Shown here piece after piece: positions 3,193-21,182 of a DNA stretch of 64,000 nt. The notes under the pieces are model-generated. The model was not told where the DNA came from and did not search any database. It saw nothing but the letters and a program-made list of their open reading frames with translations. Numbering within the stretch: the stretch's first letter is position 1; each line of letters starts with the position of its first letter. The DNA comes from a virus (taxonomy: Duplodnaviria; Caudoviricetes): positions 36,633 to 100,632 of IMG/VR virus record IMGVR_UViG_3300031867_000022; one strand, 5' to 3'. Both the position numbers and the translations under genes were made by a program.

Positions 3193-3267
3193 TGGTCGCC
3201 CCACCATCGAGTCGAACCCGGACCTGGAGGGTTAGAGCCTCCCGTGCTACCGCTACACCATGGAGCA
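3193..3267 (-). tRNA. Amber suppressor tRNA (anticodon CUA), Gln-like body
   Basis: TGCTCCA-TG-GTGT-AGCGGTA-GCAC-G-GGAGG-CTCTAAC-CCTCC-AGGT-CCGGG-TTCGACT-CGATGG-TGGGGCG-A-CCA. U1 start, encoded CCA, anticodon at 3235-3233, irregular T-stem. Confidence 0.9.
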
Positions 3268-12003: not shown

Positions 12004-12064
12004 AATACTGTCGGGATGTAGATGTCCCCTGATGAGTCGTTGCAAATTACGACGAAACAGTATT
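12004..12064 (+). ncRNA. Type III hammerhead ribozyme
   Basis: Stem III AATACTG/CAGTATT, GUC triplet (cleavage after 12012), stem I GGGAT/GTCCC, core CTGATGA, stem II GTCGT/ACGAC, core GAAA. Confidence 0.9.
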
Positions 12065-16421: not shown

Positions 16422-16469
16422 GCAACTGTGACTAGTGATAGTCAAGTCAGCACATCATCCATAAAGCGA

Positions 16470-16810
16470 GAACCTAGAGTCAGTGCTTTATAAAACCCAA
16501 AATGTAGATTACAGATCAATAGTCCGTCTTTACACTATCGGTACACGTTTACAGATTAATTAAATGGACGGTAGAGCACGACACTACATTTAATATAAGC
16601 AGAATTAACTGCAAGCAGTTAGAGTCTTGAGCCAACACTGTTAGGGTGATTAACACCGACCACACGGTGTAATAATATGTGGCCATTTGATCAAATAACT
16701 GCAATGTACGAGCCATTGAGTCGGTGCCACTGAGTGAGATGATATCAAAACTTAGACACTGCATTGTATATCAAGAAATGCGGGTACAACCTATTCAGAA
16801 CCTTAGAGTC
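16470..16810 (+). repeat. Cluster of four GARYC-N2/3-GARYC motifs in non-coding DNA
   Basis: GAACC-TA-GAGTC 16470; GAGTC-TT-GAGCC 16622; GAGCC-ATT-GAGTC 16710; GAACC-TTA-GAGTC 16798. Confidence 0.65.
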
Positions 16811-16998
16811 AGCAATAGATCACTGTACCAAACTAAGGCCTTAAAAAGCCTCTCTAAGCGTTTCAAATCCTTGAGTGGATTAGCTACCCATGATAGGGGG
16901 AGAAAATGCCTTAGAGAGGCTATAATACGGCTTAAATCGAATTCTGTGACTGATCATCACAGAGTTTACTAGAGTGTACAACATTAAAATCAATTTAT

Positions 16999-17175
16999 AT
17001 GAAGTACGAAAATTCTATGCATCGATTCTTTCAAGTTAGTAGCGGAGTTTCCCTTATTATAGCAGGTATAAGTATGCTAAAAGGCAATATGCAAGGTGCA
17101 ACATTTGGTGTGCTTTTGGCCATACACTTAAACATGCTATCTTGGAATTATGAAGATTACGATGAGGAAGAATAA
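16999..17175 (+). CDS. Small membrane protein (58 aa)
   Basis: MKYENSMHRFFQVSSGVSLIIAGISML...YDEEE-TAA. Confidence 0.5.
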   Translation: MKYENSMHRFFQVSSGVSLIIAGISMLKGNMQGATFGVLLAIHLNMLSWNYEDYDEEE

Positions 17176-17177
17176 GA

Positions 17178-17390
17178 AATCTTAGCGTGTCCCAGGATAA
17201 GTCGTTCGGACGGCGGTTCGATTCCGCCCAGGTCCACCTATATTAATAAATATGGGCTTGACTGGTTTAGACGGCGACAGAAAGTAAGACATCAAGCGCT
17301 TTGATATAAAAATTAAACGGCAACATAAACGTTGTTGACTACACGGGTCTCCAGGAGGCAGCGTGAAGTCGGTGAACCCTACCTAAGTGG
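17178..17390 (+). ncRNA. ssrA: Circularly permuted (two-piece) tmRNA; outer ends approximate
   Basis: The 3' acceptor part comes first (GGAC-GGCGG-TTCGATT-CCGCC-CAGGTCC-A-CC, 17208-17238), then an AT spacer, then the 5' part GGGCTTG-ACTGGTTTAGAC at 17254. Pairing gives G3-U70; P2 is GGCGAC/GTCGTT; tag ORF 17319-17366 reads GNINVVDYTGLQEAA-TGA. Confidence 0.88.
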
Positions 17391-17393
17391 GGA

Positions 17394-17450
17394 GAGTGAG
17401 TAGCGTTAATTCGCCCAGGTACAGGTGGGTTCGAATCCCACACTCACTCC
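17394..17450 (+). ncRNA. Anticodon-less tRNA-like element
   Basis: GAGTGAGT/ACTCACTC stem stacked on GTGGG-TTCGAAT-CCCAC T-arm; small GCG/CGC arm. Confidence 0.6.
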
Positions 17451-17539
17451 TACGTCGTGAGACGCATTAGACTGTCTTAAAGGATAGTCTCTTTCGTGAA
17501 TGGTAGGTGCAGGTGAAGTATAGTAGCCTGCACCGTAAT

Positions 17540-17708
17540 GGATCAATAGCTCAGTTGGTAGAGCAATAGAGATAAGCAAAAGATAGAGCTGTCACGGCTA
17601 CATGGCTGATATAAACCGTGTAAAAAATGTGTAAAATTGATTTGTTTCAAACTATCATGGTGATTTGTTTATCTTTATAAGTCCCCGGTTCGAGCCCGAG
17701 TTGGTCCA
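17540..17708 (+). ncRNA. tRNA-like RNA with ~113-nt extended anticodon domain
   Basis: Acceptor GGATCAA/TTGGTCC, D-arm GCTC-AGTTGGTA-GAGC, T-arm CCCGG-TTCGAGC-CCGAG. The anticodon stem is replaced by a 15-bp helix ATAGAGATAAGCAAA/TTTGTTTATCTTTAT enclosing more structure. Confidence 0.75.
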
Positions 17709-17722
17709 CAAACACATATCGA

Positions 17723-19796: not shown

Positions 19797-21182
19797 ATGG
19801 CAAAAACAAAGCAAAACGCAGCACAGGCTGCAATGGAAAACAATGGCAACGCTCCTGAGACAAAAGAGGAGGCAAAAGTACTCACTCAGGTAATGGACGC
19901 TGCAAAGAGCAACCACCTGTCACAGGACAGTAAGGTTATGCTCGCTTACCTTACTCAGAAGCGCTGGGTAGAAAATCCAAATCTCCCCACGACACTGGTT
20001 GAAGGTGCAAATGTTATTACAGACGCCCTCATGGCCGATACTATCGTTACAAGCATCGCTAAAGGCGATGAAGCATTTACAATGCTTATTCGTAACGACG
20101 AAAGCAAGTATATCGCTATCGCAGCGGCTCTGAATACCTTTGGTATTACCATGCCGGCATTCAAAGAGCTCCCCGCTCCTTCAGAAGACCAGCTGAAGAA
20201 GATTGGCGTTAAGCTTCTTCCTGCAGAAACCAAGGTTGTAACTGTAAACAAACAGAACATCGACAAGGCCGCCATCGAACAGAAGAAGAAAGAAGTAGCA
20301 GTGGTGAAGAAGAATCCCACGACCGATCCCACAAAGATCGAAAATGAGACTCAGCTTAAGGAAGCCCTTCAGTCTTTACTGATGAATATGAAGGAGACTC
20401 CTGACGGTCGTATTCAAAATGCTGTAGCTTTCTACCAGGCATATCTTGAGCTCCAGGCACAGAAGTCTGAAAACAAGGATGAAGAGATTAAGCGTATCAA
20501 GGATCTTTCCCGCCCTGTATTGCTGAAACAAATCTCTGAACTTCTTGGCAACTGTACCTATGCTCTCGATGGTATGGGCAAGCTGTTCGCAAAAGCTGCC
20601 ATAGAGTCTAATTCTCCAGTGGTCCCATTCAAGATGTACAAGACTGCATCAAAGAACACATCTGACGAGATTGCTGCAGAGATGGTTAAAACTCTGGTTG
20701 TGTGGACTTGTGAGTCTCGCATAAAGAACTGTCAAGACTACATAGACATGGCCGCTAAGGACAAGTCTAAGAAGGATGATGAGAAGCGTAAAGCTAACAT
20801 CCGTACAGCAGAGGATTCTATAGCAGAAGCGCAGAATGCTATCAGCATCGTTACCAATCCTTCGTTCGATAACGTTGACAATCTGATTGAGAACTACAAA
20901 TCTGCAGACGTACAAAGTGATGCGTATCGTATCGCACACCGCATCGTCAGCAACATGAAGGATTTGTTCTACAAGAAGCTTGACATCGCCAAGGTTGGTA
21001 TGGATGCATTCTTGCATAACTGTCAACAGCATGCAGGTATTATCACCAACCTTTTCTGCAGTACATTCAATCAGTCTATGGGTTACAGCACCGCTAACCT
21101 CATAGAACTGAAGGAAACTGAAGCTGCCGAAGGTGAAGGTGAGAAGACCGAAGAAAAGCAGGAAGGTGAGTCAAAAAACTGA
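19797..21182 (+). CDS. Hypothetical protein (461 aa, helical)
   Basis: Long ORF, TTTATCAAAAATGGC context. Confidence 0.9.
   Translation: MAKTKQNAAQAAMENNGNAPETKEEAKVLTQVMDAAKSNHLSQDSKVMLAYLTQKRWVENPNLPTTLVEGANVITDALMADTIVTSIAKGDEAFTMLIRNDESKYIAIAAALNTFGITMPAFKELPAPSEDQLKKIGVKLLPAETKVVTVNKQNIDKAAIEQKKKEVAVVKKNPTTDPTKIENETQLKEALQSLLMNMKETPDGRIQNAVAFYQAYLELQAQKSENKDEEIKRIKDLSRPVLLKQISELLGNCTYALDGMGKLFAKAAIESNSPVVPFKMYKTASKNTSDEIAAEMVKTLVVWTCESRIKNCQDYIDMAAKDKSKKDDEKRKANIRTAEDSIAEAQNAISIVTNPSFDNVDNLIENYKSADVQSDAYRIAHRIVSNMKDLFYKKLDIAKVGMDAFLHNCQQHAGIITNLFCSTFNQSMGYSTANLIELKETEAAEGEGEKTEEKQEGESKN

Follow-up and report, generated by a model that had tools for sequence, protein, structure and literature searches.

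The question raised by this locus is whether a segment of about 210 nt in a phage genome, read in the original prediction as a compact and circularly permuted tmRNA encoded by a recoded phage, does represent a working ssrA gene, and what such a gene might be for. Comparison with relatives, in sequence and in covarying base pairs, argues with a probability of roughly 85% that the locus is a functional, circularly permuted ssrA gene and the characteristic tmRNA of the Suoliviridae crAss-like phages.

The window, namely the whole stretch of 64,000 nt that was analysed, corresponds to bases 36633-100632 of a virus record of 100,632 bp, which is complete and has terminal repeats, and its phage is a rumen or gut crAss-like phage. 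The named relatives retrieved with the tmRNA region as query are the crAss-like phages cr272_1 and cr273_1 (Crassvirales, Suoliviridae, Oafivirinae, Buhlduvirus); the family Suoliviridae is termed Darmviridae in the copy of the NCBI taxonomy consulted. The phage is TAG-recoded, with a suppressor tRNA of anticodon CTA at 3193-3267 and three giant late ORFs that contain 26, 41 and 6 in-frame TAGs, respectively. Relatives were gathered via the DNA polymerase, which yielded 80 IMG/VR loci, and 32 parent records were then scanned with the Rfam 15 model RF04321 (tmRNA_permuted). The neighbouring gene at 19797-21182 retrieved no relatives, and an IMG/VR search with a pattern of the tag and its downstream DNA returned three loci only.

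ARAGORN reports a single tmRNA in the window, at 17144-17457 and in its "Permuted" layout, and RF04321 matches 17187-17366 with 71.1 bits (E 1e-11), compared to a gathering score of 47 bits. The two checks proposed along with the original prediction, ARAGORN and a permuted-tmRNA covariance model, thus both call the gene, and its central claim of a circularly permuted tmRNA in a recoded phage is borne out. The permuted order, with the acceptor piece upstream, followed by an intervening sequence and the coding piece, is the same in all relatives. All 29 genes scored, among which the intron-split L002 was fixed afterwards by eye, have a tRNA-Ala-like domain composed of a 7-bp acceptor stem with 7/7 pairs, G3:U70, A73 and a T-arm, but no anticodon arm; the proposed G3-U70 alanine identity is therefore present in the window and kept in 29/29 genes. 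In the mRNA-like part, a resume codon opens a short tag frame that is closed by an in-frame stop. In neither the window nor 18 relatives does any of the clade-specific models alpha_tmRNA, beta_tmRNA and cyano_tmRNA (RF01849-RF01851) attain its gathering score. The best of them, beta_tmRNA, has a cut-off of 84 but scores 42.9 bits in the window and no more than 49.3 bits in any of the 18 relatives, and the alpha and cyano models scored below it and were removed by clan competition. The canonical architecture of four pseudoknots, with PK1 before the tag and PK2-PK4 after helix 5, is absent from the window gene, which is no bar to membership of the permuted family because RF04321 models no pseudoknots (PMC11915505).

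The predicted layout of acceptor piece, 15-nt A/T spacer and coding piece was recovered element by element, and the two pieces, of about 64 nt and about 140 nt, add up to a total of about 200 nt, so the size of ~210 nt first given is right as well. The elements are as follows.

About 17176-17238, plus strand: acceptor piece, comprising a 5' leader complementary to parts of the coding piece, the 3' strand of P2, the T-arm, the 3' strand of the acceptor stem, A73 and CC (from the ARAGORN 3' tRNA domain, the Rfam alignment and covariation; 5' end approximate).
17179-17191, plus strand: leader strand AUC-UU-AGCGU-GUC (covariation helices 1-2; helix recovered by cofolding), with its partners GAC (17288-90), GCGCU (17296-300) and GAU (17303-05) in the coding piece.
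17212-17228, plus strand: T-arm GGCGG-UUCGAUU-CCGCC (4/5 pairs compensatory; 99% of cells pair).
17229-17235, plus strand: 3' strand of the acceptor stem, CAGGUCC, in which U17233 is U70.
17236, plus strand: discriminator A73, read from the sequence.
17237-8, plus strand: CC, read from the sequence.
17239-17253, plus strand: intervening spacer of 15 nt, A/U only and unconserved among relatives.
17254 to about 17393, plus strand: coding piece, in the order acceptor 5' strand, D-loop analogue, P2 5' strands, 13-nt linker, tag, P5 and pseudoknot (3' end placed by the start of the downstream minihelix).
17254-17260, plus strand: 5' strand of the acceptor stem, GGGCUUG, in which G3 is 17256, opposite U17233.
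17319-21, plus strand: resume codon GGC, read from the sequence.
17319-17363, plus strand: tag frame GGC...GCG of 15 codons, GNINVVDYTGLQEAA (frame conserved in relatives).
17364-6, plus strand: tag stop TGA, read from the sequence.
17320-17335, plus strand: small hairpin GCAAC/GUUGU, which takes in bases 2 and 3 of the resume codon (100% of cells pair; 2 pairs compensatory).
17337-17370, plus strand: P5-like helix of 13 bp around tag codons 7-15 and the stop (99.6% of cells pair).
17371-17391, plus strand: candidate H-type pseudoknot with the stems GGUG (17371-4) with UACC (17380-3) and CCC (17377-9) with GGG (17389-91) (stem 2 covaries well; stem 1 has one compensatory swap).
17394-17450, plus strand: minihelix directly after the coding piece, with an 8-bp acceptor stem and a T-arm but no anticodon arm, read from the sequence.

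The fold was examined in a MAFFT alignment of 20 main-clade genes (A4), on which a structure transferred from RNAalifold was scored. Over its 55 pairs, 95.6% of the cells are paired, and 27/55 pairs show compensatory changes. The covariation score is 0.302, compared to 0.121 in shuffles, with 0/500 shuffles reaching the observed value, and the pairing in slid controls amounts to 36-43%. The structural match is far beyond chance. Against such extensive compensatory changes, an independent covariance model well above its cut-off and the retention of the gene in 21/21 near-complete relatives, the reading of the locus as a spurious program call, or as the decaying remnant of a host gene once captured, is effectively refuted, even though ARAGORN is known to over-call and, in this case, extends the gene into the minihelix and reports a shorter tag for the window.

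In the alignment, the acceptor stem has G3:U70 in 20/20 genes and four covarying pairs. P2 is a long interrupted helix of about 19 bp that reaches the 5' leader of the acceptor piece. All seven pairs of P2a covary, P2b is a short helix, and in distal P2 the segment GCGCU-UU-GAU of the coding piece pairs with AUC-UU-AGCGU of the leader. A G.U pair of distal P2 is deleted from both strands together in two relatives (L100 and L108), and in cr273_1 a full swap to GCGUA/UACGC is found. Distal P2 is predicted to hold the two RNA pieces together. It ends 13 nt before the resume codon, which we take to be about the position occupied by PK1 in one-piece tmRNAs; PK1 is usually the best-kept tmRNA pseudoknot. 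A two-strand fold of the window's own pieces gave the same helices, at -66.1 kcal/mol (z = -2.2).

Downstream of the resume codon, base 3 of the Tyr codon in P5 and base 2 of the stop codon covary (UAC-UGA, UAU-UAA), and P5 is followed by a 3' hairpin with a conserved loop. A covariation scan over all column pairs of the alignment gave a single addition, in which GGUG after P5 pairs with UACC in the loop of the 3' hairpin (97.5% paired, one compensatory swap), forming together with the hairpin stem an H-type pseudoknot. The same fold fits, by eye, Bohxovirus and cr7_1. We regard this small pseudoknot after P5 as a likely but weakly supported candidate. For PK1, PK3 and PK4, the covariation scan gave no pairs. 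The earlier remark that so short an RNA leaves little room for pk2-pk4 holds in that PK3 and PK4 were not found and one small pseudoknot lies after P5. Two other pairings were considered and rejected. A PK1 formed by AGAAAG and CUUU is without covariation support, and in a kissing pair between CUAAG of the 3' loop and CUUAG of the leader, CAAAG variants of the loop are uncompensated and the leader segment lies within P2; the pairing of loop UACC with GGUG fits better.

The tag frame follows the original reading of 15 codons, GNINVVDYTGLQEAA, ending with TGA. ARAGORN gives the window a shorter tag, VVDYTGLQEAA, but calls a 15-residue tag in most close relatives, and its tag in the homologue of cr272_1 and cr273_1 is identical to that of the window. 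Since a 15-codon frame starting with GGC or GAC is also kept in 22/22 main-clade genes read from the same point, the longer tag is the better one, and VVDYTGLQEAA is an artefact of start picking. The main-clade consensus is (G/D)(N/D)x(N/K)(I/V)(V/A)DYTGL(Q/K)EAA. In other subfamilies the tags have 12-13 residues with the same core: GNFNVVDYTCVA, DNVNNIVDYTNVA, GNNFVTDYTAIGA and GNFYVTDYTRIAA. The stops of the 22 main-clade genes are TGA in 16, TAA in six and TAG in none.

Conservation at the peptide level is best seen in codons 7-15, where 7/8 variant codon types in the 22 main-clade genes are synonymous third-base changes, including three Ala codons that alternate at codon 14, where the third base is unpaired, and a GCG-to-GCA change in codon 15 breaks a P5 pair and keeps Ala. 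As the invariant DYT codons also form the 5' strand of P5, constraints on the peptide and on the RNA are not fully separable, and the apparent conservation of the tag peptide may be partly an RNA constraint. This overlap, together with a position among other RNA genes and tRNA-like minihelices, would suit a locus that mainly serves the processing or structure of a polycistronic RNA-gene cluster, with tRNA-like punctuation guiding RNase P and the mRNA-like part conserved as RNA structure only. Such an element would need neither G3:U70 and A73 nor a frame with fixed start and stop, and the synonymous changes at codon 14 and the pair-breaking one at codon 15 make it highly improbable.

We also considered whether the RNA could be a decoy whose tRNA-like domain soaks up host SmpB or AlaRS and shuts down host trans-translation, leaving the tag frame unused. 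A search with PF01668 found no SmpB in the complete 100,632-bp genome, which extends the original observation of no SmpB in the window to the whole genome; the host must therefore supply this partner. The lack of a phage SmpB is in line with a decoy, as is the strong reduction of the RNA, which has no PK1, and a tRNA-like-domain-only RNA of mycobacteriophage DS6A, with a proposed role of this kind, provides a precedent (PMC4131195, PMC11915505). However, three subfamilies have kept the tag frame, its stop and the resume context, the changes in codons 7-15 are for the most part synonymous, and working Bacteroidota tmRNAs have a matching resume context, all of which renders a decoy quite improbable compared to a functional ssrA gene.

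The fate of the tagged products is less clear. The usual tmRNA tag ends with a hydrophobic residue followed by AA. The main-clade tag ends with EAA instead, so a role as degradation signal is uncertain, and as the phage tag differs from the host tag GENNYALAA, phage-tagged products may meet a different fate.

The spacer between the two pieces differs widely among relatives: if counting starts at the base that follows A73, its length is 17 nt in the window and ranges in relatives from 16 nt up to about 200 nt. It is almost certainly discarded. The Rfam matches in 18 relatives, taken up to an E of 0.01, include no ribozyme or riboswitch in the variable spacers. In L002 (4444-4623) and L112, the spacer contains a 59-codon ORF, MKG(F/Y)IVL...FFHEL, for which Pfam gave no match in L002. 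Few relatives, and not the window, encode a complete CCA; C74 alone is conserved. Directly 3' of the coding piece there is always a complete tRNA or a minihelix; it is a minihelix in the window, whereas a tRNA in relatives is often tRNA-Met, as in L086, L111 and L112. Such an arrangement is expected if RNase P makes the 5' end of the coding piece and, via the next element, its 3' end as well. We infer that the minihelix at 17394-17450 is the RNase P site that sets the 3' end of the coding piece.

RF04321 matches 27/32 related IMG/VR records, 23/32 of them over the cut-off, and 19/21 near-complete genomes. The two near-complete genomes without a match are explained by a T-loop intron of group I, about 840 nt long, which splits the gene and which the model does not span; with these two intron-split genes, identified by eye, the tmRNA is present in 21/21 near-complete relatives. 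In both of these complete genomes (L002:3538-4781 and L125:645-1760), the intron follows the first T-loop base of the acceptor piece and is recognized by the Rfam model Intron_gpI with 86.8 and 83.6 bits, respectively. The intron of L002 carries a 209-codon ORF on the opposite strand, without a Pfam match. These genes resemble the intron-form tmRNA, which has a group I intron in the T-loop (PMC11915505), but differ from it in that the intron sits in a permuted gene; the window gene has no intron. The forms tabulated in the same work are standard, permuted and intron, and the combination of permuted and intron is absent (PMC11915505). In a further relative, L112 (record G008), the T-loop reads AGACAUA rather than UUCGAAU and the remaining tmRNA is intact, which may represent an intron-loss scar or a disabled copy.

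Beyond the IMG/VR records, the tmRNA is present and annotated in cr7_1 (Burzaovirus, Oafivirinae), cr50_1 (Cohcovirus, Boorivirinae) and cr114_1 (Aurodevirus, Uncouvirinae), and thus spans three Suoliviridae subfamilies. An unannotated permuted tmRNA was found in Bohxovirus sp. 'endotrachealis' (PV686213.1, 80579-80768; 70.6 bits), in a clade in which ARAGORN misses the gene. RefSeq already annotates a tmRNA in 5/5 records checked (cr272_1, cr273_1, cr7_1, cr50_1 and cr114_1), with the feature at the homologous place of cr272_1 and cr273_1 named "transfer-messenger RNA, SsrA", and Table S1 of Buchholz et al. 2022 marks 13 crAssphage genomes as "Permuted" (PMC9004378). The novelty originally claimed for the locus does not stand; many catalogued homologues, which by the prediction's own terms would remove it, do exist in RefSeq and in that table. 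The text of the same paper describes 50/53 two-piece phage tmRNAs as marine or aquatic, yet the 13 crAssphage genomes that Table S1 marks "Permuted" are from the human gut (PMC9004378). A 2025 tmRNA database searched RefSeq viruses and reported 79 phage sequences (PMC11915505); through its use of RefSeq viruses it should contain crAss entries. The gene is accordingly of a catalogued kind, to which the window adds one member. The literature searched contained no discussion of the crAss-like tmRNA, its structure or its tag. As far as found, the apparently new features are the architecture shared across the family, which lacks PK1 and combines an intermolecular distal P2 with a single small pseudoknot; the marking of the 3' end by a tRNA-like element; the distinct conserved tag; and the coexistence of a permuted gene and a T-loop group I intron in relatives.

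Where this gene came from was addressed by comparison with known tmRNAs. In the known permuted form, the enzymes of tRNA processing cut the tmRNA into two pieces (PMC11915505). The phage gene shares with the two-piece tmRNAs of Alphaproteobacteria, some Betaproteobacteria and Cyanobacteria (RF01849, RF01850 and RF01851, merged in RF04321) the gene order, an inter-piece acceptor stem with G3:U70, a P2 joining the pieces, a tag frame and the processing expected via tRNA enzymes. By contrast, the phage RNA is much smaller, at about 200 nt, and has no PK1, in place of which P2 extends into the leader of the acceptor piece; moreover, the host phylum of the crAss-like phage has a one-piece tmRNA. 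Two-piece tmRNAs have also been recorded in the marine phages Melnitz and pelagimyophages, again as phage-encoded permuted ssrA with no phage SmpB reported (PMC9004378). Those are of the alphaproteobacterial type and accompanied by a glutamine riboswitch (PMC9004378), whereas no riboswitch or ribozyme was found with the crAss-like genes, and the structure differs.

Host-type tmRNAs were sampled with the tag pattern GENNYALAA, which gave more than 120 loci, almost all from Bacteroidota, with an ARAGORN tmRNA in 101. All of these 101 genes are one-piece by ARAGORN, as had been asserted for Bacteroidota ssrA, and 360-410 nt long. They share with the phage gene the resume codon GGC in the context UUAAAC or UUAAYU (UUAAUU being among the host forms), and resemble it in both halves of the tRNA-like domain. 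They differ in being one-piece, twice as long and equipped with a 9-residue tag ending with ALAA. The matches of an nhmmer profile of the 101 genes to the phage pieces did not extend beyond the two tRNA-like half-domains, and as these are universally conserved, the profile does not discriminate between lines of descent. The simplest reading is an independent permutation, because Bacteroidota tmRNAs are one-piece, the resume context is shared and no alpha, beta or cyano model passes; on these sequence features, it is plausible that the crAss-like tmRNA is an independent permutation of a Bacteroidota-type gene. A more far-reaching proposal, which we advance tentatively and give slightly less than even odds as a whole, is that the Suoliviridae tmRNA is a further independently permuted lineage derived from the Bacteroidota one-piece type and at the same time a near-minimal working tmRNA, in which an intermolecular extension of P2 would take the usual place of PK1, one small pseudoknot would replace PK2-PK4, the ends would be set by neighbouring tRNA-like elements, and spacer ORFs and a T-loop group I intron would be tolerated.

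The original prediction further suggested that the RNA may rescue ribosomes stalled at UAG or on cleaved mRNA. In the stricter form considered here, a real tmRNA would be kept specifically for TAG recoding, acting at UAG when the suppressor tRNA is scarce or RF1 is blocked. The phage of the window and most tested tmRNA-bearing relatives are TAG-recoded: homologues of the window's 2430-residue late protein contain in-frame TAGs in cr114_1, cr6_1, cr7_1, Bohxovirus and three IMG/VR relatives. Moreover, the tag frames never end with TAG, but TAA and TGA are the usual tmRNA stops anyway, and with RF1 active, UAG leads to termination rather than stalling. The homologue in cr50_1 has no in-frame TAG, and yet this phage possesses the tmRNA (60.3 bits), whereas cr6_1 (Bearivirinae) has 16 in-frame TAGs in the tested late gene and no clear tmRNA match. 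Because of these two phages, in a small sample with one late gene per genome, the tmRNA is not tied to recoding; the suggested role is unsupported, and we consider it unlikely. General ribosome rescue during infection fits better than a UAG-specific role.

For the functional ssrA gene that we favour, we propose that the locus is transcribed within the RNA-gene cluster, after which host RNase P would cut 5' of G17254 and 5' of the downstream minihelix to yield a coding piece of about 140 nt. Host enzymes would trim the 3' trailer of the acceptor piece and complete its CCA, and host AlaRS would charge the RNA with alanine. Host SmpB and EF-Tu could then bring the charged RNA to stalled ribosomes of the infected cell, where translation would resume at GGC and append GNINVVDYTGLQEAA. 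The likely benefit would be an increased capacity of ribosome rescue during infection. The crAss-like phages are among the most abundant gut viruses, and the fact that one of their families has kept its own rescue RNA almost without exception points to ribosome stalling as a limit on the infection of Bacteroidota. A natural minimal tmRNA of about 200 nt, in two pieces and without PK1, could show which tmRNA parts are needed, and its distinct tag offers a mass-spectrometry handle for distinguishing proteins rescued by the phage RNA from those rescued by the host RNA.

Several other RNA elements surround the gene. A tRNA-shaped gene at 17540-17709 of the window has an insert of about 94 nt in its anticodon loop, and is called by ARAGORN as tRNA-Lys(ttt) with an intron and by the Rfam tRNA model with 37.8 bits. 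On the strand of the RNA-gene cluster, a type III hammerhead ribozyme is found at 12005-12063 (49.8 bits, compared to an Rfam threshold of 48.5 bits). A few hundred bases upstream of the tmRNA, cr50_1 contains a RAGATH-22 RNA (L122:879-1045; 155.6 bits) and cr114_1 a RAGATH-9 RNA (L123:2108-2275; 153.7 bits). Where these other subfamilies have RAGATH RNAs, the window has a different conserved non-coding stretch, at 16425-16990. Between this upstream non-coding RNA and the tmRNA of the window lies a 58-codon ORF with a hydrophobic middle (16999-17175), for which neither Pfam nor PHROG gave a match; in most relatives, the upstream non-coding RNA runs almost straight into the tmRNA leader.
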